Source: an uncultured Chloroflexia bacterium
GTDB taxonomy: Bacteria; Chloroflexota; Anaerolineae; CG2-30-64-16
DNA length: 64,000 nt
NCBI GenBank assembly: GCA_963774265.1
Contig: CAVZDU010000001.1
Coordinates: forward strand, 544,001 to 608,000
Direction of reading: 5' to 3'
Made by a program: the position numbers and the translations under genes
Part shown: piece by piece, positions 21,880 through 34,855 of the stretch
Position numbering within the stretch: position 1 is the stretch's first letter
How the letters are laid out: each line of letters begins with the position of its first letter
Notes under the pieces: model-generated
Databases searched by the model: none
The model's input: only the letters and a program-made list of their open reading frames with translations
What the model was told of the DNA's origin: nothing

Positions 21880-24165
21880 ATGGCGCGCGACATCCTCGAT
21901 CTTGCAACGGCTGCGTGGCAGATGGGTCAGGTCCGCCGCCAGCCATTCACACCTCAGCCCATCGACGACCGTTCAGCGGTTGCCGGGTGGCTGCCCGCAC
22001 GCGTCCCAGGCGATGTTCGCGCTGATCTCCTGGCGGCTGGCCGCGTTTCCTCCCTGGATACACCGGGCGGCATCGAGCAGAGTGCATGGGTCGACGACCA
22101 CGATTGGTGGTATCGCACCGGGCTGGAAGCGGTCGATGGCAACACGTCGGTTGTTTTGGAGGCAGACGGCGTCGACTATTACAGCAGCGTCTGGCTCGAC
22201 GGCTACTGCCTTGCGCGGCACGCCGGCATGTTTGCCCGGCAATCGATCGTCCTCTCGCCATATCTCAACGCAGCCGGCCCACACGAGCTGGCGATTCGTG
22301 TGTGGGGCGGCGGGGCGCTGCCGCGCCTGCCAAATTCCACGTCGCGTCGCACGATGCGCACTTTGCTGGGCCGGTTAGGTCTGGCGACCGAGTATTTTCC
22401 AGACCGGATGGCGACTCCAAAGGCGCAGTTCAGCTTCGGTTGGGACTTCGCGCCACGCGTCTTGAGCACAGGGATCTGGGATGATATTCGACTGGTGCGC
22501 TGCCGGGGCGCCTATCTGGCGGACGCTTGGGCCTGGGCCGAGCCGCTATCCGGATTTGACGATCCGACGCCGGTGCGATGGCACATTCGTGTCAGGGTGC
22601 AGCGGTTGCATGAGGCCGCCCTGCGGCTGGACCTGATGATCTGTGATGCCGGGGGCGAGGCCGTTGAGGTGTCGGCCGGCCCCTATGCCCTGGCCGATGA
22701 GGTGGAGCAGTCGTTCACCGTTGATGCGCCGGCCGCGCGGCGCTGGTGGCCCTGGGATCAGGGCCATCCTCATCTTTACCGGGTTATCGTTCGCATCAGC
22801 GACGAGTCCGGCCCGGTTGATGAGATTGGGGTCACGGCTGGTGTTCGTACTGTGGAGCGCGGCCGGCTGGCGAACGGCCAGCCGTGGCGTTTCATCCTCA
22901 ATGGTCGTCCCATGTTTCTGCGCGGCGCCAACTGGGTTCCCACAGACATCTTGCCCGGCCGAGCCGGCCCGCACGACTACGCGCGTATGATCGGCCTCGC
23001 AAGGGATGCGGGCGTCAACTTCCTGCGCATCTGGGGCGGCGGCATCCGTGAGAAGGCCGCGTTCTGGGAACAATGTGACCGCCAGGGCATCATGGCCATG
23101 CAGGAGTTCCCCCTCGCCTGTTCGTTTCTTGATCACTATGGACGTGACGCCCAATACCTGGAGGTGCTCGCGTCCGAAGCTCAGGGGATCGTGCGCGCGC
23201 TGCGCGGGCGCCCTGCCTTGATCGCCTGGTGTGGTGGCAATGAAATCAGTCCGCAACGCGAACGGGTCCCGCTGCGTATTATTGAGCAGGTGCTTGTGGC
23301 TGAGGATGGCACGCGGCCGTGGATTCCTGCCTCTCCCTCCCAGGGCGACGTGCATCAGTGGGATGTCTGGCATGGCTTGGCGCCGTGGCAATCGCTTGAC
23401 CAGGTCAGGGCGCCGTTCATGAGCGAGTTTGGCCTGCAGGCGTTGCCGGATGTCAGCACCATTGCGACCTTCTTCGGCGCCGCCGCGCCACAGTCGCTGG
23501 ACGATGTGCGTTGGGTCGAGCGCAAGCTCCAGGCCGGCAAGATCCGCCATTACAGCGGGCCGATGGATGAGGCCGATTTGGTGGCCACAATTGGGGCCAC
23601 GCAACGTGCCCAGGCAGCAGGGCTGCAAAGGGGGATAGAGGCGTGTCGTCTGAGAAGGGAAGGCTCAGGGCACGCACATCCGTGCGGCGGTGTCGCGTTT
23701 TGGCAGTTCAATGAGCCGTGGCCGGCGGTGACGTGGGCGGTGGTTGATCGATGCGGGCAGCCCAAGGCTGCATATGCGATGCTGTGTCGCTCCTACCAGC
23801 CGCTGCTGATTGCCGCCAGGTTCGAGTGGCGCAACTGGCGCTCCGGAGACACATTCAACGCGAAGATCTGGTGGGTCAATGATGGGCCGGATCACTTTAC
23901 GGGGTGTGCTGTGAAGGCGGTCCTGGATGAAGAGTTGGTCTTGTCTGCGGACGGTCTGGTGATCCAGCCCGCTTCTGCGCAACGAGCCGGCGCTTTTGCC
24001 GTCACCCTGGCCGCTCGACCGTCGCAGCTGGAATTGACCTTGCTCTGCGACACTCGTGTCATCGCCGTTAACAGCTACGATCTCCGTGCCTATTTGCCGC
24101 CCAGGCAGCCCACGCGAGTATGGTTCATGCGTCGGGCCGCAGACCTGATGTTGCGAATCGGTTGA
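21880..24165 (+). CDS. GH2 beta-mannosidase-like glycoside hydrolase
   Basis: AQFSFGWDFAP, RGANWVP, LRIWGGG, WCGGNE, FMSEFG and WQFNEPWP. Confidence 0.9.
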   Translation: MARDILDLATAAWQMGQVRRQPFTPQPIDDRSAVAGWLPARVPGDVRADLLAAGRVSSLDTPGGIEQSAWVDDHDWWYRTGLEAVDGNTSVVLEADGVDYYSSVWLDGYCLARHAGMFARQSIVLSPYLNAAGPHELAIRVWGGGALPRLPNSTSRRTMRTLLGRLGLATEYFPDRMATPKAQFSFGWDFAPRVLSTGIWDDIRLVRCRGAYLADAWAWAEPLSGFDDPTPVRWHIRVRVQRLHEAALRLDLMICDAGGEAVEVSAGPYALADEVEQSFTVDAPAARRWWPWDQGHPHLYRVIVRISDESGPVDEIGVTAGVRTVERGRLANGQPWRFILNGRPMFLRGANWVPTDILPGRAGPHDYARMIGLARDAGVNFLRIWGGGIREKAAFWEQCDRQGIMAMQEFPLACSFLDHYGRDAQYLEVLASEAQGIVRALRGRPALIAWCGGNEISPQRERVPLRIIEQVLVAEDGTRPWIPASPSQGDVHQWDVWHGLAPWQSLDQVRAPFMSEFGLQALPDVSTIATFFGAAAPQSLDDVRWVERKLQAGKIRHYSGPMDEADLVATIGATQRAQAAGLQRGIEACRLRREGSGHAHPCGGVAFWQFNEPWPAVTWAVVDRCGQPKAAYAMLCRSYQPLLIAARFEWRNWRSGDTFNAKIWWVNDGPDHFTGCAVKAVLDEELVLSADGLVIQPASAQRAGAFAVTLAARPSQLELTLLCDTRVIAVNSYDLRAYLPPRQPTRVWFMRRAADLMLRIG

Positions 24166-24204
24166 CATATCGTTCTCGATCGACTATTCTCTCCGAGAAA
24201 TCGT

Positions 24205-25162
24205 ATGCGAATTGTCGTCAATGGTTGGTTTTGGAATCAAATGGCTACGGGAAGCGGGCAGTATCTGACCGCGCTCACAGAGACGTTGCCAGCGCGCCGG
24301 GCGCTCGCATGAGTTCATCCTGGTTTGCTCCCAAACTAACAAGGGCGCAGAGCGATTGCCGGAGGGTTGGCAGGTGGCGCATCTGGCGACGCCGTTCGAC
24401 CGGATAGGCAAGAATCTGGCAAAGCTCTGGTTCGAGCAGGTGACGTTTCCGCGAACATGTGTTCGTAGCGGGGCAGATGTGGCGTTCGTGCCCTATTGGG
24501 GTTCGCCCTGGTGGCGACCGTGCCCGGTTGTCGTGACGGTGCATGACTTGATTCCTTTGTTGCTCCCCCTCTATCAGGGTGGGGCTGCCCAGCGGGCCTA
24601 TACGCAGTTGGTGTCCCGAACCGCGCGGCGCGCATCGGCCGTGCTGACCGACTCCGAGGCGAGTCGTCAGGACATCATTCGTCATTTGCGCATTCCCGCA
24701 GAGCAAGTTCATGCGGTGCACCTGGCGGTAGCGCCGTCCAGCACCGGCCCGCTCACGCCCGAGCATCTCGCGGCCGTACGAGTTCGGTATGGCCTGCCTG
24801 AAGGCCCCATTCTGTTATACTTAGGCGGCTTTGACGTGCGCAAGAATCTTTTGCGGACGCTTGAAGGCTACGGCCGTCTTGCTGCCAGGTGCGCAGCCGA
24901 AGGAACGACCTTTCCCACGCTCGTGATCGCGGGTAAGTTGCCGGCGGTCGATTCGGCCATTGCGCCGGATCCCAGGCCGATGGTTGAACGGTTTGGCTTG
25001 GCGAACCGTGTCCATTTTGCAGGTTGGGTGGAGGAAGCGGACAAGCCTGCCCTGTACGCCCTTGCAGAAGGGTTCCTGTTTCTCAGCGAGTATGAGGGGT
25101 TTGGCCTGCCGGTGCTCGAAGCCATGGCGGGCGACTCCACGATCACGAAAGCGCTGGAGTAA
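24205..25162 (+). pseudogene. GT4 glycosyltransferase, frameshifted near 24295 and C-terminally truncated
   Basis: MRIVVNG...GSGQY, VTVHDLIP, RKNL and SEYEGFGLPVLEAMA, then an abrupt GDSTITKALE* lacking the usual C-terminal GT4 segment. Confidence 0.7.
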
Positions 25163-25165
25163 CTC

Positions 25166-26554
25166 GTGCCTGATAATGCAAAATTGTCCCGCGCCGCACA
25201 CAACATCCTGGTCCATTCTTTTGGCCTGAGGCGAGACCAGAACTTGTTAATTTTCGCTGACATCACATCGCTGGATGTGATTGAGGTTGTGGCGCGGGTC
25301 GCGCGCGATCTCCACGTCACTACGACTGCTCTATTCGTGCCGCGGGTGCTGCAGCTCGATATGGGTCCGTTTGAGAGCCTGCCCCTGCCTACGGAGGCGG
25401 CGGTGCGTGAAGCGGATGCGATCCTGAGCTGTTTGTCCGATCATCCTGAGCACTTGCACTACCGGATGCGCGTGCTTCACGCCAGTTGGGGTCGTCGGGC
25501 GAAGCTGGCTCATGCCCCAGGCATGAGCGTCGAGATGCTCAGAACGCTGGACACTGACTACGCTGCTATCAGCGAGCAAGCCCAAATCCTCAGCCTTGCC
25601 CTTATCCTGGGCAAGCGCGTCGAAATCGTGACTACCGACAGCAGCCGTCGCGAGCACCGGCTCAGTGTGCGGGTGGGCGGTTGGGCTTATCCGCCGGGGA
25701 TCAATGACGGAATGATCCGTGAAGGCTCGTGGAGCACGCTTCCGCCAGGGGAAGTCAATTTCGTGCCCCGTGATGGGGATGGCCGCATCGTGGTCAACGG
25801 CTCAGTTCCTGGCAAGGTGCTCGGGCCGGGTGAGGAGCTATTGCTGACGTTTCGCGAGGGTCGGGTGGTGACGATCGAGCCGGAGGATAGCCCGGTCGCG
25901 CGTTACTTATACGAGTCGCAATTCATCTATGCAGAGCGTCGGGGCGACACAAACTGGTCGAACCTGGCTGAGGTTGGCTTCGGTCTGAATCCGGCGGTGC
26001 AAGACTTGACGGGGTTGGGCGTGGTGGATGAGAAAAAGGCCCACACGATCCACATCGCGCTCGGTAACAGCGCCGGCCTCGGCGGCGATGTCGAGTCGGT
26101 GATTCATTGCGACATGGTCGTCAAGAAGCCTACGGTTTATGTCAACGGCCGGCTGATCATGAAACGCGGCGACTGGCGGATCAATGAAGGCGACTGGCGG
26201 CTTGACCATCGCAGCGTCACTGTGCCGGTCGGGTGGTGGGAGAGCGTGAGTCAGGTGGGGCGTAGCGCTGCACGTACTGAGCGTGAGGGAGGCCGGTTGA
26301 CGTGTGTGTGGAACGCGGGCCGCGGCCGTTGGGACAGTGCACCGATCGGAGTGGAGCAAACGGCGCGTCTCGCGGCTCGCCTTTATGACCTGCTGCCTGA
26401 GAATGGCAGTCCTGTTAGTAGAGACCATATGATTTCCATCGCTGAGCAGGCGGGCATCCCTGCGATGGTGCTGCCGCGCCTGTGTTGGGTAATGGCTCAG
26501 TTCGATCTGGTTCGCATGGCGACTGCCCGCGAGCCATCGCTGCTGGCAACATAA
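25166..26554 (+). CDS. M29/aminopeptidase T-like metallopeptidase with C-terminal extension
   Basis: LPPGEV, AEVGFGLN, DEKK..TIHIALG and S.IHCD metal-ligand motifs, plus an extra C-terminal region of ~120 aa. Confidence 0.75.
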   Translation: MPDNAKLSRAAHNILVHSFGLRRDQNLLIFADITSLDVIEVVARVARDLHVTTTALFVPRVLQLDMGPFESLPLPTEAAVREADAILSCLSDHPEHLHYRMRVLHASWGRRAKLAHAPGMSVEMLRTLDTDYAAISEQAQILSLALILGKRVEIVTTDSSRREHRLSVRVGGWAYPPGINDGMIREGSWSTLPPGEVNFVPRDGDGRIVVNGSVPGKVLGPGEELLLTFREGRVVTIEPEDSPVARYLYESQFIYAERRGDTNWSNLAEVGFGLNPAVQDLTGLGVVDEKKAHTIHIALGNSAGLGGDVESVIHCDMVVKKPTVYVNGRLIMKRGDWRINEGDWRLDHRSVTVPVGWWESVSQVGRSAARTEREGGRLTCVWNAGRGRWDSAPIGVEQTARLAARLYDLLPENGSPVSRDHMISIAEQAGIPAMVLPRLCWVMAQFDLVRMATAREPSLLAT

Positions 26555-26581
26555 AAGACCGATGGGATTGAGGGGAGCGCT

Positions 26582-28120
26582 ATGAACGCGGTCAAAACCC
26601 CGTGGCGTCAGGCGATGCCGGAATTCCTGCAGTTGCTCGATGGGACCCTTGGGCACACGGTCCGGCTGCACGAAGAAGTGCTGGGCTATGACCTCTACTT
26701 TGTAGACCTGTCGGATTGGAAGCTGCGCTTCTCCGACCGCACACCCGTGATCTGGGTCAAGGAATCGGACCTGGCGGCGATGCACCGCGCGCGATCTGGC
26801 CCAGAGGCTGACTGACCTGGTGCGTGCACAGTCGCTGGTGGAGCGAAACCCGATTCTCGTGGTGCAGGGACCAGGGGGAGAGCTGAAGCAGCAGCTCAAG
26901 CCTCTTCTCAGCCGCTGTTGGTGCTCGACGAGGGGGACGTAAGTGCCGTGCGCGAGTCGCGACGGCCCTCGGGCGAGTTGCTCGATCGTCTGGCGCCGCA
27001 GCTCGACCTGTCACTGCTGACCCCCTATGAGACCAGCAAGCCGGTTACCGGCTCGCGATTCTTCGGCCGCGAATTCGAGGTGCGCCGGATCCTGCAAACC
27101 GGTGACAGCAACTTCGCGATCATGGGGATTCGGCGCATCGGCAAGACGTCGCTGATGCGCGAGATCGAGCGGCAGCTTAAGGAACAGGCACAAGATGCGG
27201 AAAGCGACGAATCCTTGGAGCGCATCATCTTCATGGATTGCAGCGCGATCTCGTCCCCGAATAGCTTTATCCAGGAGGTCGTGCGCAAGCTGCGGCCGCA
27301 AGAACTGACCCGCCTCTCGTCCAAGCAGTACCCCATTTTCTTCCCTGACTTCTTGGAACGAATGTCGCAGCGCTATGGGGGTCCGATTGTCTTTTTCCTC
27401 GATGAGTTCGACAAGGTGCTCACCTGGCACTATGAGGATGACTCCCTGCTAAATGCGTTGCGCGCTTCCAGCAACCAGGGTTACTCGCGTTACATCGTCG
27501 GCGGTTTTCGCGATGTCATGCGTGCGTTCAGTGATCTGGATTCGCCTCTTTACAACTTTGCCAGGCCGATCCGGCTCAAGGAATTCAGCCGTGAGCAGGC
27601 TGCAGCGATGATCCTCGGTCCCCTGGAGAGGCTGGGGGTGCAATTCGAGCGCCGGAACGATGTGGTCAATCGCATTTTCGACGAGACTGCGGGCCAACCG
27701 AACCTTATCCAGTTCTACTGCAGCATCCTGGTCGAACGGCTGGACCGTGAGGCCAGCCGGTCCGTCTCGCCCGAGAGCCTGTTCGACGTGTACGGCAATG
27801 ATGATTTCCGTGCATTTGTGCTAAGCACGTTCATGGATAACACGACGCATCTGGAAAAGGCCATCGTGTTCGCCGTGATGGCGGACCTGGGTGCAGAGCA
27901 TCCTTTCGGCGTCCAGCAGATCGACGGCGCCTTGGAGCGTCGCGGCGTGGAGATCCCGCTTTCGGATCTGGATTTGGCTTGCCGTAACCTGGAGCTGGCA
28001 GGTACGTTTACTTCGCGCGGTCCATTGTTCCGTTTCGCCACGCCTGTCTTCCCGAGAATGCTGAGCGAGAATTACGACGTGGACTACCTGTTCCGCAAAG
28101 TGTTACAGGAAGGCATCTAG
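26582..28120 (+). CDS. STAND-class P-loop ATPase (two apparent frameshifts near 26790 and 26908)
   Basis: TPYETSKPVTGSRFFGRE, Walker A GIRRIGKTS, Walker B FFLDEFD and GxP motif ETAGQPNLIQ. Confidence 0.8.
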
Positions 28121-28123
28121 CTC

Positions 28124-30958
28124 ATGGCAGACGGTGCGCCACCCTGGCGTGTGGTTCCCTACGAAGAGGCATCGCCGTTCAAAAAGGTGCGTGTGCGCGA
28201 TGAAGCGCGGGTGCGCACGGTCGTGCGGCGCCTGATGAACGACGAGTGTGTTGCTCTGTTGGGCCCACCGATGAGCGAAAAAAGCCGCTTGCTGCGCGAC
28301 GTGGCTGAAGAGCTGCTGCAAAGCGGTCGTTACCGGCCGCTGCACATAGACTTGTGGCGCACCCGGTCGAACGATGAGGCGGCTTTCTTCACAAGCCTGG
28401 CGGATCTGATTGCCAGTGAGCTGGGAGACGCCGCTCCGCGCGCTCCCGTGGAGTGTGGCGAAGCAATCGCAGACGCGCGTAGCTTCCAGGGTTATCTGGC
28501 GCAGGCCGCGAATAGCAGCAATACGAACATCGCTCTGCTGATCGATCACCTGCAAGCGTTGCCTCATGATCTCGTGCACAGCTTGCTCGTCGCGCTGCGT
28601 GCCGCGTACATGGAGCGCGAGGCAGATGCGCCGCACAGCCTGGTCGCGGTGGTCGCTGGCGGCATGAACCTGGTAGGTCTCTCCACCGGCCCTACCTCGC
28701 CGTTCAACATCGCGAAACCCGTGGTCGCCGAGCCCTTGACGGTGGAGCAAAGCCGCGCGCTTGCGGCGGCATCGCTGGAGGCCCTAGAGTGTTCGGCATC
28801 GGCACGCGGCATGGAGCGTCTCGTCCAATGGGGTGCAGGCGACCGCTACCTGATCACGCGACTGTGTGCGGATAGCTCAGAATTGGTCCGGCTGCACCGC
28901 CATCGCCGGGTGACGTCGGCGATTGTGGAGCGGGCCGGCGCGGCGCTTGTCGCGCACGGATCGCCGCCGCCGGTGCGCGCTGCCATCCGCATGATCGAGG
29001 AGGACCCGGACACTGTTTTGGATGTCCTCCACCTGTTGGATAATGACTCGTTGCCGCGTACACGCTCGCGCCAGGCGCCCACTCGCACCGGCACGGATCG
29101 CCTGCAGCTTTCCGGAGCTGTCATCCTGGCCGACGGATGTTACATGTTCATGAACGAGGTCTACCGGAGGGCCTTGGCCGCGCATTTCACAACGGATCGG
29201 GTTGGTCACGTGTTGCGGATTGCCGGACGTTGGAGCGAGGCGATTGCCTATCTGGCGCCGCGGCGCGCCCAGTTGGCCCGCCCCCAGCTTCTTGAAGCCA
29301 TCGTTCAGTCGATTTATGCAAGTGACTCGTCAGAGCAGGCGTATGGGTTGCTGGCCGACGGTCTGCGCTTTGGTTTCGGCCTGGCCGACATTGGCATCTA
29401 CCGCGCGCATCCCGCCGCGGCGCTGCTGCAACAGGTCTACCCGGCGGCCAGCAACGGACAGCCGGTGCATGTTGACCTGCGCGATCCCGGCTGCGTCGAA
29501 GCCCAGACGTTCAACTTGGGTAACTATGCCCTGCGGGGCAGCGCAGACGAGGCGCGCCTGGTGGTTTGCCTTGCCTCCACCGTTCGATCGCTCGGCGTGG
29601 TAACTGTTGAGCACTACGTGCAGGACCGCGATCCTCACGAGCTTCCCGACGAACTGCCGGACCTGCTGCGTTTTCTGCAGCATGCAGCGGGTGCGCTGGA
29701 AAACGTGATCACCCGTGGGGCCTACCGCGCCATCGGACAGGCCGTCCTCGATGCCAAGGCCATGCAGCCAACCGTCGAGCGTGTTCTTGACACGGTTGCT
29801 GAGGCGCTAGGGTGCGACTACGGCGTGTTGTACCTGACGGATGATGCGCGCCGCCAGCTTGATATGGCAGCCGGCGTCGGCACAGTGGTCACCCAGGAAT
29901 GGCAGGCGCAAGCGCACTTTCCCCTGAACGGCCAGCATCCTGCTGTCACTGCACTGACAGGCGCCCGGATGATCACCGCGCGCGGCGGCGAGGATGCGCA
30001 GGACCGTGCTTTATTCGATCGTTTTGGCCTCCATCGCTACGTGCGCGTGTTTTTGCCTCTGGCGGCCGGGGGTGAACAGCTCGGCGTCTTGGAGCTCGGC
30101 TACGCGGTCGGGCGCGCGCGCCTCTCTGACGAGCACAAACGGACCCTCTCGGCCTTTGCCGATCAGGTGGCCATTGCCGTACACAACATGCTGCTGCTGC
30201 GGCGGACGGATGAGGCATTAGCCCGGAAGCTGGCAGAGCTGTCGGTTGGACGAGAAATTCAATTGAGCTTGCTGCCGAAAGCGTGTCCCACGATCCCCGG
30301 TTGGCAATTTGAGGCTGTCTATCAGGCCGCGCGTACGGTCGGAGGTGACTTCTACGATTTCTGTGATCTGCCCGGCCCACCCGCCCGCCTTGGCGTTGTG
30401 ATCGCTGACGTGGCCGATAAGGGTGTGCCTGCTGCGTTGTTCATGGCATTAAGCAGGACAATCATTCGCAGCGTAGCTTTTACCGGCCGAGGTCCTGCGT
30501 CCGCGCTCATGCGCGCAAACCAACTGATTCTGGCCGACAGTCAGTCCGATTTGTTCTTGAGCGCGGTATACCTGGTGATCGAAACCGGCACGGGTCGTGT
30601 TTCTTACACCAACGCGGGTCACACCCGGCCGCTGCTTTACCGTGCGGCGAGCGGCGTGCTGAGCGAACTGACCCAGCGCGGCATCATCTTGGGTACGTTT
30701 GAGGAGATCACGTTGCGGGATGACCGCGTGGATCTTGCGCCAGGCGATGTGTTGGTGCTCTACACCGATGGGGTCACCGACGCGCTCAACGCTGACGGTG
30801 AGGAGTTCGGCGAGCAACGCTTGTTCGATGTGATAACGGCACACGCCAGGGGCAGCGCGCAGGAGATCCTGTGGGCGATCACCGGTGCGCTGGCGGGTTT
30901 CATCGACGGCACGGAGCCGGCTGACGACGTGACGTGTGTCGTTATCAAGCGCGGTTAA
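28124..30958 (+). CDS. Degenerate STAND/AAA domain + GAF domains + SpoIIE/PP2C phosphatase
   Basis: Degenerate Walker A GPPMSEKS and Walker B LLIDHL; GAF (PL...GEQLGVLEL...FADQVAIAVHN); PP2C GGDFYD, IADVADKG, NAGH, YTDGVTD, DDVT. Confidence 0.85.
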   Translation: MADGAPPWRVVPYEEASPFKKVRVRDEARVRTVVRRLMNDECVALLGPPMSEKSRLLRDVAEELLQSGRYRPLHIDLWRTRSNDEAAFFTSLADLIASELGDAAPRAPVECGEAIADARSFQGYLAQAANSSNTNIALLIDHLQALPHDLVHSLLVALRAAYMEREADAPHSLVAVVAGGMNLVGLSTGPTSPFNIAKPVVAEPLTVEQSRALAAASLEALECSASARGMERLVQWGAGDRYLITRLCADSSELVRLHRHRRVTSAIVERAGAALVAHGSPPPVRAAIRMIEEDPDTVLDVLHLLDNDSLPRTRSRQAPTRTGTDRLQLSGAVILADGCYMFMNEVYRRALAAHFTTDRVGHVLRIAGRWSEAIAYLAPRRAQLARPQLLEAIVQSIYASDSSEQAYGLLADGLRFGFGLADIGIYRAHPAAALLQQVYPAASNGQPVHVDLRDPGCVEAQTFNLGNYALRGSADEARLVVCLASTVRSLGVVTVEHYVQDRDPHELPDELPDLLRFLQHAAGALENVITRGAYRAIGQAVLDAKAMQPTVERVLDTVAEALGCDYGVLYLTDDARRQLDMAAGVGTVVTQEWQAQAHFPLNGQHPAVTALTGARMITARGGEDAQDRALFDRFGLHRYVRVFLPLAAGGEQLGVLELGYAVGRARLSDEHKRTLSAFADQVAIAVHNMLLLRRTDEALARKLAELSVGREIQLSLLPKACPTIPGWQFEAVYQAARTVGGDFYDFCDLPGPPARLGVVIADVADKGVPAALFMALSRTIIRSVAFTGRGPASALMRANQLILADSQSDLFLSAVYLVIETGTGRVSYTNAGHTRPLLYRAASGVLSELTQRGIILGTFEEITLRDDRVDLAPGDVLVLYTDGVTDALNADGEEFGEQRLFDVITAHARGSAQEILWAITGALAGFIDGTEPADDVTCVVIKRG

Positions 30959-30985
30959 TCAAGCGCGGCTAATCAAGCGCGGTTA
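30944..30985. repeat. 3 x 14-bp tandem repeat ATCAAGCGCGG(T/C)TA at a convergent gene junction
   Basis: Units at 30944, 30958 and 30972. Confidence 0.9.
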
Positions 30986-33457
30986 GGGATCGAGTCGCGC
31001 ACCTGTCACCGGCAGAAAGGCCGGTCCATTGACCACATCCGACCGGAACCGCGGAATGATCTGGTAGCCGCTGTCGGTCGTTTTCTCCCCAACATACTGT
31101 CCCAACACGCCTTGCGCCGCCCATGTCTCCCCGATGTTGACATACGGCCGGCGCCAGGACAGGCTCTCCGGGAAGTAGATGCGAATTATCCCGCCCCTGT
31201 CCTTGAGCACCAGCGCCTGGGGCTCGAATTTGATGACGGCCCCAACCACCTGCACGAGATGCCCTTCGTTGGCCTCAATGAGTCCAGCCGAGGTCACTGG
31301 CGCCGGAGTGATCGCTTTGCCGGGTCCAAGATAGGTCAGGTAGCTTGGGTCCGGGACAGACAATTCGGTCTCACCGTAGAAATTGCGCGTCCAACCAGTG
31401 ACCCGCACCTGGTCGCCCAGAGCCAGCTTGCCATACTCGCCCGATCGCAAGTAGATCTTGATGCCCCCCGTCGCGTCCTCCAAGTAGATCGTCTTCGGGA
31501 TGAGCCCCGGCGGAAACGTGACACTGCCGGTGATGGTTGCGCGCGTATCCTCGGGGGCCGCGCGTGCCGCGGCGACTGTTTGAGGGACTGTCGCAGTGGG
31601 GGCGACGTAACTCGTTCCGGATGACGGCGGCGATGACGGCCGCAGCCGGTTCGCTGCTCCAGGCGTAACCTCACAGTCGCCCGTCCATTCCCCTGTCCCG
31701 TCCCCGTCGCGGCAGTAGCTGCGATCATCACCGGGACCACCATTGTAGGTGAATTGGTCCGCCAGCGCCCCGTCGCTCCGCGTCAAGGTGATGGTGTCGC
31801 GCCAATCCCCAAGCGAAAGGCGAGTTTGCGCCCGATACAACAGCAGGAAGCTATGCGGCCAGATGACTGTGCCCGCGGGGAGCCTGTACGTACTGGTATC
31901 ATCCGAGATCGTCCAGCCATCCAGCGCCGCAGGCGATGGCGCGGCGTTATACAGTTCGATCCATTCATCCGCAAAAGTGGCCTCCCCATCGTTGTCCCAG
32001 TCCACCTGTTTGGGATCGGGCAAAACCTCGTTCAGTGTCACTTGGAACGGCTGCTGGGGCAGGGGCGTCGGCGTCGCGGTCGTGGTCGGTGTGGCGGTTT
32101 GTGTGGGGGTGGTAAGTGTTCCCAGGGTCGGCGTCGCGGTGGGAGTCTGTGTTGGCGTAGGCGTAGCTGCGACCGCAGGCGCCCCAGGGTTGGGCGCTGC
32201 CTGCACTTGCCAATCCAGCGCCGTGTCGCTATCAGCAACACCGTCGATTCGGGCGAGGGACTGTCCCGGATCGACGCCGCTACAGGGCGGGTCGAAGACG
32301 TCCTTGTTCGTCCCGTAGCTCATGGCATCGACCACGCTGTTATCGGGTGCCAGGAGCTGGACTGCATCCCCGCTGTTACCAAGTCCGTTTCCGATTGTTC
32401 CTTTCAGGCCGATCAGCTTGCCGGAGAAGGTGGGATGCTCCGCAGTGAACATGGCCGACCTCGCCGCGATCACCGCGAATTCTCCCGGGGCTAACTCGAA
32501 CGACGGCAATTCATCCTGTCCGGCGTTATCCTTGATCCACCAACCCACCAGGGCCACCTTAACTATTGTCGGGTTGTGAACCTCGACCCATTCGTAATCA
32601 TTATCCGTTCCTTCTTGCAGCGCATCGTAAAGCACTTCGGAAAGCAGCAGCCTTGGCCACCCCCCCGGGGGCGTCACCGAGACGGTCGGGGTCGGTGTTG
32701 CGGTGAGTGTGGCCGTGGCTGTGACAGTGGGCGTCAGCGTGGCGGTCGGGGTGGTGGTCGCCTGTTCGGTTGGCGTAGGGGTGAGCGTGTCGCCGGCGGT
32801 GACCGTTGACGAAGGCGTCGTCGTGGGCTCGCTGCTGGGAGTGAGGGTCGGTGTGAAGGTGGAGGTGGGTGTGTCGGTGGCTGGTGGTGGTGCGGATGCT
32901 CCCCCCGGCGTGGGCGTCCCCGTCACCCAATCGCCCGCGCTGTCACTATCCGCATCCGGCGGCTGGCGCGCCAGAGACTGGCCTTCATTCACATCCGGGC
33001 AAGGCGGATTGAAGGCGCTGGAATCGGAGCCATAGCTTACTGCATCAATCGTCCCTCCGCCTCCATCCACCAGGGAGAGGACATCGCCCGAGTTGCTTAA
33101 TCCGTTGCCGATCGGCCCATCGAGCGACACAAGGGCGCCGGTGAAGCCGGGGTTTGCACCCCGAAAGTCACCCTCATTGCTGGCGATAACCAGATACTGG
33201 CCGGGTCCGATGGTGGGTGCTGGCAACGGGTCGGTGCTCGTGTTGTCCCTTATCGTCCAACCGGTCAGGTCAACCGCGTTGGACGTTGGGTTGTACAACT
33301 CGACCCACTCCGCCCCCGGCTCACTCGCGGCCGGGTCGTAGAGCACTTCACTGATGAGCGGGTGGTCGGCGGCGGTCCCTTGAGTCGTGGCGGGGGCCAG
33401 GAACAAGGAGCAGAACAAGATCAGGGCAAGGGAAGCGTACAGGCAGCGATGCGGCAT
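30983..33457 (-). CDS. Secreted protein with three lamin-tail domains, Pro/Thr linkers and C-terminal OB folds
   Basis: Signal peptide, three copies of (I/L)(S/N)EV...EW(V/I)E..N...L.GW.I.D, OB-like ITGSVT...YLEDATGGIKIY, and terminal LPVTG. Confidence 0.8.
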   Translation of the reverse strand: MPHRCLYASLALILFCSLFLAPATTQGTAADHPLISEVLYDPAASEPGAEWVELYNPTSNAVDLTGWTIRDNTSTDPLPAPTIGPGQYLVIASNEGDFRGANPGFTGALVSLDGPIGNGLSNSGDVLSLVDGGGGTIDAVSYGSDSSAFNPPCPDVNEGQSLARQPPDADSDSAGDWVTGTPTPGGASAPPPATDTPTSTFTPTLTPSSEPTTTPSSTVTAGDTLTPTPTEQATTTPTATLTPTVTATATLTATPTPTVSVTPPGGWPRLLLSEVLYDALQEGTDNDYEWVEVHNPTIVKVALVGWWIKDNAGQDELPSFELAPGEFAVIAARSAMFTAEHPTFSGKLIGLKGTIGNGLGNSGDAVQLLAPDNSVVDAMSYGTNKDVFDPPCSGVDPGQSLARIDGVADSDTALDWQVQAAPNPGAPAVAATPTPTQTPTATPTLGTLTTPTQTATPTTTATPTPLPQQPFQVTLNEVLPDPKQVDWDNDGEATFADEWIELYNAAPSPAALDGWTISDDTSTYRLPAGTVIWPHSFLLLYRAQTRLSLGDWRDTITLTRSDGALADQFTYNGGPGDDRSYCRDGDGTGEWTGDCEVTPGAANRLRPSSPPSSGTSYVAPTATVPQTVAAARAAPEDTRATITGSVTFPPGLIPKTIYLEDATGGIKIYLRSGEYGKLALGDQVRVTGWTRNFYGETELSVPDPSYLTYLGPGKAITPAPVTSAGLIEANEGHLVQVVGAVIKFEPQALVLKDRGGIIRIYFPESLSWRRPYVNIGETWAAQGVLGQYVGEKTTDSGYQIIPRFRSDVVNGPAFLPVTGARLDP

Positions 33458-33563
33458 GATGTCCACCTTTTGTGTTGGCGTCGTTGGCGCAGCGAGAGAA
33501 GGAGTCATGCTTCCGAGGTGATTATATGACTGTGAAAACCAACCTGTCAACTGGGGAAGTGAC

Positions 33564-33599
33564 AAAAAACTCGCCGTCTCCTGACGAGTGACGGCGAGT
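33564..33599 (-). terminator. Intrinsic terminator of rpoD
   Basis: ACTCGCCGTC...GACGGCGAGT stem followed by a T-run on the minus strand. Confidence 0.8.
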
Positions 33600-33628: not shown

Positions 33629-34855
33629 TCAGGTCAGATAATCGCGTAATTTCCGGCTGCGGCTGGGGTGACGAAGCCGGCCCAGCGCCTGCGCCTCGAT
33701 CTGCCGGATGCGCTCGCGCGTCACGCCGAATTTCTTGCCCACCTCTTCGAGTGTGTATGAGTACCCATCCACCAGGCCAAAGCGAAGCTGCAGGATGCGC
33801 ACCTCACGCGGGGTCAACGACTCGAAGATTTCGTCGATGACCTGTCGCAGCATGGTCTGAGAGGCCGAGTCGGTCGGGCTTTCGGCCTCCTCATCCTCGA
33901 TGAAATCGCCCAGGTAGCTGTCCTCTTCCTCGCCTACCGGCATCTCCAGCGACAGCGGCCGCTGTGAGACGCGAATGATCTGCTCCACCTTACGCGGCGG
34001 AACGCCCAGGCGCTCGGCGATTTCCTCGGTCGTCGGGTCGCGACCCAACTCCTGCACCAACTGCCGGCTGGTGCGCGTCAGCCGGTTGATCTGTTCGTAC
34101 ATGTGCACGGGCACGCGGATGGTGCGCCCCTGATCTGCGATGGCGCGTGTCACAGCCTGGCGAATCCACCACGTCGCATAGGTGCTGAACTTATAGCCGC
34201 GGCGATAGTCGAATTTCTTTACAGCGCGGATCAGACCGATGTTGCCTTCCTGGATGAGGTCCAGGAACGGCACACCCCGACCCACGTACTTCTTGGCGAC
34301 GCTGACGACGAGACGGGAGTTGGCCTTGATCAGGTGCTCCTGTGCTGCCTGGCCATCCCGCACGGCGAGCAATAGCTTATCGCGCTCGTCCGGATCCTCG
34401 ACACCCAGGGTCAGCTTCTGCCGGGCTTCGCGCCCGTGCTCCATCCGCTTGGCGAGACTGACCTCTTCATCGGCGGTCAGAAGCGGGACCCGTCCGATCT
34501 CCTTCAGGTACAGGCTGATCGAATCGTCAATGTCGATCAGGTCCAGGTCGATATCCAACTCTGCTGGCTCAGCTCGTTCGTCTTCAGCCGCCTCGTTGTC
34601 GTCTCCTTCACGAAAAGCACTGACCTCGATGCCCTGTTCAAATAAGTTGGCGAACAGGTCTTCGAGTTGCTCCATATTGGTTTCGGCTTCTGGGAAGGCA
34701 TTCAGGACATCATCGTAAGTCACAAAGCCTTGGTCGCGCCCCAGGGTGAACAGTTGCGCGGTCGCTTCTTTGGACTTGCTTGGGCTGTCGTCCTGACCCT
34801 CCCCATCGACTTCGGGTTGGTGTTCTAGCTCGTCATCTAGTGCGCCCATCAGCAC
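33629..34855 (-). CDS. rpoD: Primary sigma factor RpoD/SigA
   Basis: Region 1.1, [43 protein letters not shown] and [18 protein letters not shown]. Confidence 0.97.

Follow-up and report, generated by a model that had tools for sequence, protein, structure and literature searches.

Two paralogous STAND modules, a PP2C phosphatase domain, and an M29/NicX-fold protein encoded together in an uncultured Chloroflexia bacterium

Genes at the locus

We analyzed a stretch of 64,000 nucleotides (nt) from an uncultured Chloroflexia bacterium of the GTDB class Anaerolineae (the window; positions 544,001 to 608,000 of contig CAVZDU010000001.1, assembly GCA_963774265.1) that carries three consecutive genes encoding a protein of the M29/NicX peptidase fold (gene 1), an ATPase of the STAND class (gene 2), and a second STAND module joined to a GAF domain and a PP2C phosphatase domain (gene 3). 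An earlier note on this DNA, made without database searches, had described the three genes as tightly spaced, and the coordinates of the open reading frames (ORFs) bear this out, with all three genes co-oriented on the plus strand and separated by gaps of 27 nt (genes 1 and 2) and 3 nt (genes 2 and 3). Conservation across 79 related loci marks these as true genes rather than chance ORFs. The features of the locus, with coordinates counted from the first nucleotide of the window and lengths in amino acids (aa), are as follows.

25166-26554, plus strand: gene 1, 462 aa, GTG start; M29/NicX-fold metalloenzyme-like protein
Gene 1, residues ~1-345: catalytic fold in the AlphaFold2 (AF2) model
Gene 1, residues ~357-455: C-terminal extension, modeled as a beta-meander and a winged-helix-like end
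26582-28120, plus strand: gene 2, predicted nSTAND1-type AAA+/STAND ATPase; 512 aa in its intact form, broken in the assembly
26582-26815, plus strand: gene 2, first ORF piece, 77 aa
26790-26915, plus strand: gene 2, out-of-frame stretch, from DNA alignment with the related loci L001 and L002
26918-28120, plus strand: gene 2, second ORF piece, 400 aa, in the same frame as the first
27125-27151, plus strand: gene 2 Walker A, GIRRIGKTS (K188), invariant in 22 aligned relatives
27398-27412, plus strand: gene 2 Walker B, LDEFD, invariant in the same 22 relatives
28124-30958, plus strand: gene 3, 944 aa; STAND module, GAF domain, helical linker, and PP2C domain of the SpoIIE/RsbU type
28124-29200, plus strand: gene 3 STAND module, residues ~10-357, paralogue of gene 2 residues 146-500
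28262-28285, plus strand: gene 3 deviant Walker A, GPPMSEKS; the Gly before the Lys is replaced by Glu, with K53 and S54 retained
28544-28549, plus strand: gene 3 Walker B remnant, D141-H142 (IDHL), second acidic residue lost
29768-30187, plus strand: gene 3 GAF domain, residues 549-688 (Pfam GAF_2, E value 1.3e-12)
30380-30952, plus strand: gene 3 PP2C domain, residues 753-943 (Pfam SpoIIE, E value 1.7e-50, profile positions 2-191 of 192)

Gene 2 is a predicted ATPase-competent switch of the nSTAND1 type. The intact nucleotide-binding motifs that the earlier note had read in it are all in place, the Walker motifs being accompanied by a GxP motif (GQP) that is likewise invariant in the 22 relatives, and the protein scores 40 bits against the Pfam nSTAND1 family (PF20703; cut-off, 27.1). 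As that note had also said, there is no TPR or WD40 sensor, and Pfam found no other repeats in the 512-aa form. Distant gene 2-like proteins carry N-terminal arrays, of the BNR/sortilin kind in some and HEAT repeats with NACHT or beta-propellers in others. Two long examples, each followed by a partner of the AAA_35 type, are a 1,472-aa protein with NACHT, HEAT, and nSTAND1 matches in a cyanobacterial metagenome-assembled genome (MAG; L197:684-5099) and a 1,757-aa protein with beta-propellers and two AAA+ modules in a Pseudomonadota MAG (L206:723-5993). An AF2 model of gene 2 (predicted local distance difference test [pLDDT], 80.4) matched the archaeal AAA+ ATPases SSO1545 and PAB2304, ORC/Cdc6, RFC, Avs3, NRC2, CED-4, and RPP1 in Foldseek. 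The full model returned AAA+ matches only. The N-terminal domain (~140-145 residues) is a well-conserved alpha/beta domain for which residues 1-145 gave no Pfam match, a best PDB profile at an E value of 0.36, and an Atlas match at 0.83, below a useful level.

Gene 3 had been described in the earlier note as a degenerate NTPase followed by GAF domains and an intact PP2C domain. The deviant NTPase motifs and the PP2C domain stand, the latter scoring 172 bits against a SpoIIE cut-off of 25 and retaining its GGDFYD, DVADKG, YTDGVTD, and DDVT motifs, as does one GAF domain; the second proposed GAF domain (residues ~400-545) has no Pfam match. A helical stretch (residues ~689-752) lies between the GAF and PP2C domains, and Pfam found no kinase or TPR domains in the protein. 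Residues 41-178 gave a subthreshold match to ATPase_2, and relatives of the N-terminal domain match AAA_35, ATPase_2, AAA_16, and AAA_22. We aligned a profile built from 27 N-terminal domains of such partner proteins with the gene 2 family profile, and hhalign joined the two with a probability of 99.6% and an E value of 1.7e-23 over 323 columns. Because this alignment spans residues 10-357 of gene 3 and 146-500 of gene 2, the N-terminal domain of gene 3 is a P-loop STAND module, as the earlier note proposed, and a paralogue of the whole STAND module of gene 2 beyond the P-loop itself. In a direct blastp comparison, the module also matched a CHAT-carrying relative with intact motifs (E value, 1e-7). 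The description of this module as inactive holds in part: its motifs are deviant, but the Lys and Ser of Walker A are retained, and the P-loop is fully intact in sister clades.

Gene 1 had no Pfam match at an E value of 0.01, and its alignment with Peptidase_M29 (PF02073) reached 10.7 bits (E value, 0.23) over an N-terminal stretch only, below the 27-bit cut-off. The same profile is matched by 35 of 46 aligned gene 1 family members (E value of ≤0.01; best, 1.1e-11). This family has 2,036 representatives at an E value of 1e-3, and its profile matched the PDB profiles of NicX (2.5e-10), PepS (0.012), and AmpS (0.046). An AF2 model of gene 1 with a pLDDT of 95.2 and a predicted template modeling (pTM) score of 0.92 matched NicX (1.8e-20; TM score by target, 0.72), PepS (6.1e-16), AmpT (1.0e-14), and AmpS (1.3e-14) in Foldseek, with the crocagin proteins CgnE and CgnB also among the top matches. 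Judged from this model, gene 1 adopts the two-domain M29/NicX fold.

The metal ligands of M29 peptidases, which the earlier note had seen in gene 1, are well conserved. E196, E269, and H296 never vary in the family alignment, conservation of H314 and D316 is at least 90%, and the five residues are present in 37, 38, 39, 38, and 35, respectively, of 40 STAND-linked gene 1 copies. In an alignment with PepS, GE196 of gene 1 falls over TEEVF and H314xD316 over HVD. We take this Glu, Glu, His, His, Asp set to be the two-metal ligands of M29. Because NicX has His at the position of E269, gene 1 looks to be of the peptidase type rather than the dioxygenase type, and its aminopeptidase activity is putative, the relatives in fold including a dioxygenase, CgnB, and CgnE. 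In the model, a four-stranded meander opens the stretch of residues 357-455, and after it come elements in the order α1-β1-α2-α3-β2, an order typical of winged helices. We describe this end as winged-helix-like, in agreement with the earlier note, because of the modeled topology together with single Pfam helix-turn-helix (HTH) matches in 4 of 46 relatives; sequence matches are weak (PDB profiles of CtsR, 0.37; ZBP1 Z-alpha, 0.54; Rrf2, 0.83), and an Atlas search with the C-terminal domain was uninformative. No long, fused form of gene 1 was found, which is weak evidence.

The reading frames of gene 1, gene 3, and the GH2 gene of the flank are intact, and gene 2 is broken. A search of the source genome with gene 2 crossed one TGA within the match, and DNA alignment with two intact relatives (L001, where the product has 512 aa, and L002) placed a +1 insertion near 26797 and a −1 deletion near 26911, leaving ~38 codons between them out of frame and producing the in-frame TGA at 26813-26815. 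The TGA and the two indels, together with the decay of Walker A, Walker B, and GxP in gene 3, would be expected of a decaying remnant, in which gene 2 is a true pseudogene and the gene 3 P-loop has decayed through loss of function rather than division of labor. We consider this unlikely. The two indels compensate within 115 nt, and the GT4 glycosyltransferase gene upstream of gene 1 (24120-25159, plus strand) has the same pattern of two close compensating indels, running through three frames (3, 1, 2) with shifts near 24195 and 24292 when compared with the intact 346-aa gene of L001. The source genome (5.5 Mb) is assembled in 10 contigs yet 84% complete, and because this fits consensus errors, we regard the indels in gene 2 as probably of that kind. 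We sought source reads for the stretch in public runs, none of which contains it (best word share, 0.12). The conservation of the deviant gene 3 motifs among relatives, described below, also argues against a remnant.

Conservation of the gene set and its partner outputs

An alignment scan with gene 2, using one genome per species, returned 188 related stretches, and the best 80 of these, representing 79 loci, were examined. A gene 3-type STAND gene lies directly after gene 2 in all 71 loci with at least 1,000 nt downstream, mostly with junctions of −4, −14, or +3 nt. Gene 1 lies directly upstream of gene 2 on the same strand in 31 of the 69 loci with at least 1,500 nt upstream. The co-occurrence on which the earlier note's proposal depended is thus found elsewhere, and because gene 1 is facultative, the suggestion that the peptidase is an obligatory producer of the signal falls away. 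Apart from a GH2/GT4 flank in close relatives and a gene confined to kinase-type loci that is described below, no further conserved neighbor was found in the best 80 of the 188 stretches. One protein of 1,257 aa (P0276) fuses gene 2 and gene 3, with nSTAND1 at residues 151-360, a second NTPase at 515-631, and SpoIIE at 1063-1256.

The gene set is patchily distributed and present as one copy per genome. At an E value of 1e-40, gene 2 matched 31 of 201 Anaerolineae genomes (18 of the 156 of high quality) and 1 of 5 genomes in the family of the source organism. None of 400 other Chloroflexota genomes matched at an E value of 1e-60, a weak result since only 3 candidates per genome were scored. Beyond the close relatives, distant and longer gene 2-like loci have a partner of the AAA_35 type directly downstream in 15 of 20 cases. 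The AAA_35-like family itself is broad and mostly unpaired; among the best 80 of 275 stretches found with it (79 loci), a gene 2-like gene lies upstream in 7. In the source genome, contig C3 carries, at ~408,500-410,200 on the minus strand, two adjacent ORFs of 792 and 520 aa with weak matches to the gene 2 and gene 3 STAND profiles (E values of 6e-9 to 6e-4), which, with loci L007, L187, and L189, are possibly a second, very divergent STAND pair.

Whether gene 1 belongs with the STAND pair at all can be judged from its own distribution. Of 69 loci, 38 lack it; it belongs to a very large superfamily, M29/NicX (the 2,036 representatives noted above), and most members of that superfamily sit in other contexts, as would be the case if gene 1 were an unrelated housekeeping aminopeptidase placed upstream by chance. 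Against this, gene 1 is adjacent and co-oriented wherever it occurs (31 of 31). A reverse scan with the gene 1 family, of which the best 80 of 267 stretches were examined, found three of the earlier loci again (L029, L046, and L065) and 77 new ones (L108 to L184). A gene 2-like gene follows gene 1 in 13 of these 77. The 13 are spread over Chloroflexota, Acidobacteriota (with a Thermoanaerobaculia MAG among them), a Gemmatimonadota MAG, and a MAG of Lamprocystis, a gammaproteobacterium (Pseudomonadota). The match extends past residue 410 in 12 new loci, all 12 with a gene 2-like gene next to gene 1, while the 64 loci without such a neighbor, many of them archaeal, match the catalytic part alone, to residue 378 at most. 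Because a match beyond residue 378 never occurs in the 64 unlinked loci, the C-terminally extended subfamily is tied to gene 2-like ATPases across phyla, and we regard a chance placement of gene 1 as very improbable. At one new locus, in an Acidobacteriota MAG (L115:3795-6350), the gene 1 homologue has 852 aa with ~400 extra N-terminal residues, matches Peptidase_M29 at 46.8 bits, and is accompanied by a third gene that encodes a calcineurin-like phosphoesterase.

The C-terminal outputs of the gene 3-type partners vary. Among 18 partners searched with Pfam, 11 end in SpoIIE and 7 in HATPase_c, with zero to three GAF domains. A local tblastn tally over 83 loci assigned a PP2C output to 57 and a histidine kinase output to 9, of which 8 are followed by a receiver (REC) gene; the output was unassigned in 5 and cut by a contig end in 12. 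The REC genes after kinase-type partners encode TCAD9 and APH-like kinase domains in 3 of 3 tested. Kinase-type loci with a receiver-TCAD9/APH-like kinase gene next to them are L020, L027, L030, L031, L034, L035, L045, L056, and L112, and in L102 the TCAD9 kinase is fused straight onto a STAND-GAF partner. L030, with a trio of the kinase variant, comes from a Litorilinea aerophila MAG. More distant partners end in CHAT, Pycsar-type TIR, SIR2_2, DUF4062, GAF with TCAD9, HATPase_c, or ~200 residues without a Pfam match, and the third gene in other phyla encodes Metallophos, CHAT, or GAF-HATPase_c plus REC. The partners with the ~200-residue region (L092, L105, L106, L107, and L191 to L195) are ~545-610 aa long, and this region is a possible unrecognized effector domain.

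The ATPase motifs of the partners differ by clade, as follows.

Partners of the CHAT/TIR type: Walker A GxRQTGKTT, Walker B LLDE, and GHPYL
Partners of the 777-aa PP2C clade: Walker A GPRLxGKT, Walker B IID[PH]LE, and mostly GDPYL
Partners of the window's clade and the kinase clade: Walker A GPPxSEK[ST], Walker B LIDHLQ, and GD[RYCSQ]YL

The GxP region reads GDR in the window's clade. Compared in this way, the sequences suggest a stepwise decay of the partner motifs toward the window's clade, with the gene 2 motifs unchanged throughout. Because GPPxSEK[ST] is conserved over two clades in which the PP2C or kinase outputs are intact, and K53 is invariant in the partner alignment, the deviant motif itself appears to be under selection, which is difficult to reconcile with a decaying remnant. 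We placed these states on a maximum-likelihood tree from a quick search with 82 gene 2 proteins (one minus-strand row was dropped), which requires at least 3 changes between PP2C and kinase outputs and at least 8 changes in the presence of gene 1. Loci with gene 1 sit on deep branches, and we infer that gene 1 may be ancestral and repeatedly lost and that PP2C may have replaced the kinase more than once.

Downstream, gene 3 converges with a gene on the minus strand (30983-33565) for an 860-aa lamin-tail domain (LTD) protein with three such domains and an OB-fold-like match, after which lies a gene for a primary sigma-70 factor of the RpoD type (33629-34855, minus strand); the adjacency of these two genes to the operon is not conserved in relatives. 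Three copies of a 14-nt unit (ATCAAGCGCGGTTA; 92% matches) lie at 30944-30985 of the window, spanning the gene 3 stop and reaching the 3' end of the LTD gene. Promoter and terminator counts at the locus were no higher than in shuffled sequences, and an Rfam search of the locus gave no match.

A possible two-STAND switch

The genes are packed as in an operon, the pairing of genes 2 and 3 is universal among the loci, their STAND modules are paralogous with asymmetric nucleotide motifs, and the C-terminal outputs are exchangeable. With modest confidence, we favor the reading that the three genes form one conserved operon for a modular two-STAND system, in which one STAND protein would be the sensor and the other the effector carrier, with an ancestry in conflict systems, a phospho-signaling output, and an accessory peptidase. 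We hypothesize that a trigger leads gene 2 to bind ATP and co-assemble with the STAND module of gene 3, in the manner of a sensor with an executor or helper nucleotide-binding leucine-rich repeat (NLR) protein or of an ORC or clamp-loader ring with degenerate sites. Such an assembly could bring the linkers and PP2C domains together and turn the phosphatase on by dimerization. Activation of PP2C through linker dimerization is described for RsbU and proposed to apply generally when PP2C, GGDEF, or kinase domains are controlled by sensors that they have in common (Baral et al. 2025, PMC12143880). The helical stretch at residues ~689-752 of gene 3 would fit the role of such a linker. The GAF domain may be an additional gate for a small ligand. 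Gene 1 may be an optional input or processing module that docks through its winged-helix-like end and could trim or sense a protein N terminus. The hetero-oligomer that gates a phosphatase, already proposed in the earlier note, is what we infer, and the fusion protein P0276 lends weak support to a physical coupling of genes 2 and 3.

The family as a whole may descend from, or belong to, an immune-type conflict system, and the TIR, SIR2, and CHAT outputs in the wider family make this option more concrete than the earlier note had proposed. For the window's clade itself, a dormancy or stress switch may be a better description than a killer because the output there is phospho-signaling.

Several observations weigh against this reading. 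Domains of the GAF, PP2C, histidine kinase, and receiver kinds are commonplace in signaling, and no TCAD9 above the cut-off is present in the source genome. Pfam found no defense or mobile genes among the window neighbors (GH2, GT4, the LTD protein, and RpoD), and relatives in viral contigs number zero. Plasmids gave one weak match, to part of a 2,285-aa Cupriavidus protein that we ruled out as a member of the system because of its different build. No STAS, RsbV, RsbW, RsbT, or kinase gene is conserved beside the PP2C-type loci, a statement that covers neighbors and not distant genome regions, which were not searched. The 38 loci without gene 1 indicate that it is not essential, the fusion P0276 stands alone and a frameshift artifact could explain it, the gene 2 tree comes from a quick search with a midpoint root only, and, with gene 2 broken in the assembly, the system may be dead in this genome.

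Some of these points lead to a different account, in which the genes serve ordinary signal transduction in the cytoplasm and play no part in conflict, the TIR, SIR2, and CHAT relatives having branched off separately. A STAND switch pair would then respond to stress or to a metabolic cue, a ligand would bind to the GAF domain, and the PP2C or kinase domain would feed a partner-switching or two-component pathway. The two main clades around the window carry signaling outputs only (the 57 PP2C and 9 kinase loci of the 83), a cognate receiver gene accompanies the kinase type, and housekeeping flanks (GH2, GT4) are common to close relatives. The single copy per genome, the absence of relatives from viral contigs, and the lack of a PADLOC system match (see below) point the same way, and the exchange of PP2C and kinase domains behind the same sensors is described for normal signaling (PMC12143880). 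The distribution is, however, patchy (31 of 201 Anaerolineae and 1 of 5 genomes in the window's family), and the same gene order recurs across four phyla. At orthologous positions, partners end in TIR, SIR2, CHAT, DUF4062, or calcineurin-like domains, and the receiver domain shares its gene with TCAD9, which takes its name from conflict systems (PMC7159879). We regard this purely signaling account as possible but rather doubtful.

If the two-STAND reading is correct, the locus would provide a compact and evolutionarily traceable division of labor between two bacterial STAND ATPases, with motif decay that can be followed clade by clade, and would link immune-type effectors and ordinary phospho-signaling outputs on a single chassis. 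It would also lend itself to studies of how an ATP switch passes its signal to a dead-site partner, a question shared with plant helper NLRs and ORC-like rings, and would give a large and little-studied branch of the M29/NicX superfamily its first functional context. A more ambitious version, which we put forward tentatively, is that the pair corresponds, in bacteria, to the paired sensor/executor NLRs, in that an ATP-competent STAND protein drives a progressively deadened, effector-carrying one. The system would have had an immune origin (TIR, SIR2, CHAT, phosphoesterase) and have been retooled at least twice to phospho-signaling, by a histidine kinase with its receiver-TCAD9 kinase gene and then by PP2C, with a dedicated M29-fold peptidase and its winged-helix dock as an input that processes N termini. 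Were the genes merely an accessory stress-signaling module, they would still represent an unnamed three-gene family in at least four phyla.

Comparison with known systems

The earlier note did not recognize this combination as a described system, and our searches agree. PADLOC-DB 2.0.0 holds no system model for the core; gene 2 matched only PDC-S27 and PDC-S01, at E values of 1.8e-4 or weaker, and genes 1 and 3 had no match. In relatives, the PADLOC matches are to effector domains only (ThsA-type SIR2, 1.4e-37; SAVED_CHAT, 3.8e-8; TIR). The full-text literature gave no description of the gene set, although subscription journals and supplements not in text form may hold one.

The closest described relatives are the nSTAND1-containing STAND/NLR-like conflict systems (Kaur, Burroughs, Iyer & Aravind, eLife 2020, PMC7159879; 2021, PMC8195603), which, as presented in those surveys, share a central STAND NTPase with swappable effectors (TIR, caspase-like, calcineurin, kinase). 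Gene 2 scores above the Pfam nSTAND1 cut-off, and relatives of the locus carry the TCAD9 kinase. The locus differs in having two separate paralogous STAND genes, with the effector C-terminal to the second, AAA_35/ATPase_2-like STAND module, and in its PP2C and histidine kinase outputs and attached M29-fold protein. According to the 2020 survey, its vWA-associated effectors yielded no histidine kinase (PMC7159879). The terms PP2C, M29, SpoIIE, aminopeptidase, and TCAD9 are absent from two of its supplement files, and the first four are absent from eight supplement files of PMC8195603, where nSTAND1 is present. A catalytically decayed STAND module used as a scaffold in a multigene system is also known from the iSTAND proteins of the MoxR-vWA ternary systems, as outlined in the same 2020 survey (PMC7159879); here the active partner is another STAND protein, and the effectors are C-terminal rather than N-terminal. 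Membership in the MoxR-vWA group was rejected, as no MoxR or vWA gene occurs among the window neighbors or the conserved neighbor clusters of the 79 loci.

Plant paired sensor/helper NLRs and heteromeric AAA+ rings with degenerate sites (ORC, clamp loaders) also join two paralogous switch ATPases of which one lacks canonical nucleotide motifs. The likeness extends to the adjacency of the genes and to the fold of the gene 2 model, with its matches to NRC2, RPP1, ORC, and RFC. The genes described here are bacterial and their effector chemistry is different; the resemblance is one of analogy and not of membership.

RsbU/SpoIIE-type phosphatases likewise place a SpoIIE-family PP2C domain behind a GAF domain and a helical linker, and PP2C and kinase domains are described as exchangeable behind the same sensor (PMC12143880), whereas the regulator in our case would be a STAND module with a separate STAND ATPase. 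We rejected membership in the Rsb partner-switching systems: the SpoIIE PP2C domain is present, but genes for a STAS antagonist or an RsbW-like kinase are not linked to the PP2C-type loci.

Finally, gene 1 shares its fold with the M29 aminopeptidases AmpS, AmpT, and PepS and with NicX, and it keeps the aminopeptidase pattern of Glu, Glu, His, His, and Asp. It differs from them in scoring below the Pfam cut-off, in an additional C-terminal part of ~110 residues with the beta-meander and winged-helix-like domain, and in its dedication to a STAND operon. The parts of the locus are all of known kinds, and what appears to be new is the STAND pairing, the gradient of motif decay, the use of PP2C and kinase domains as outputs, and an M29-fold protein dedicated to the set.

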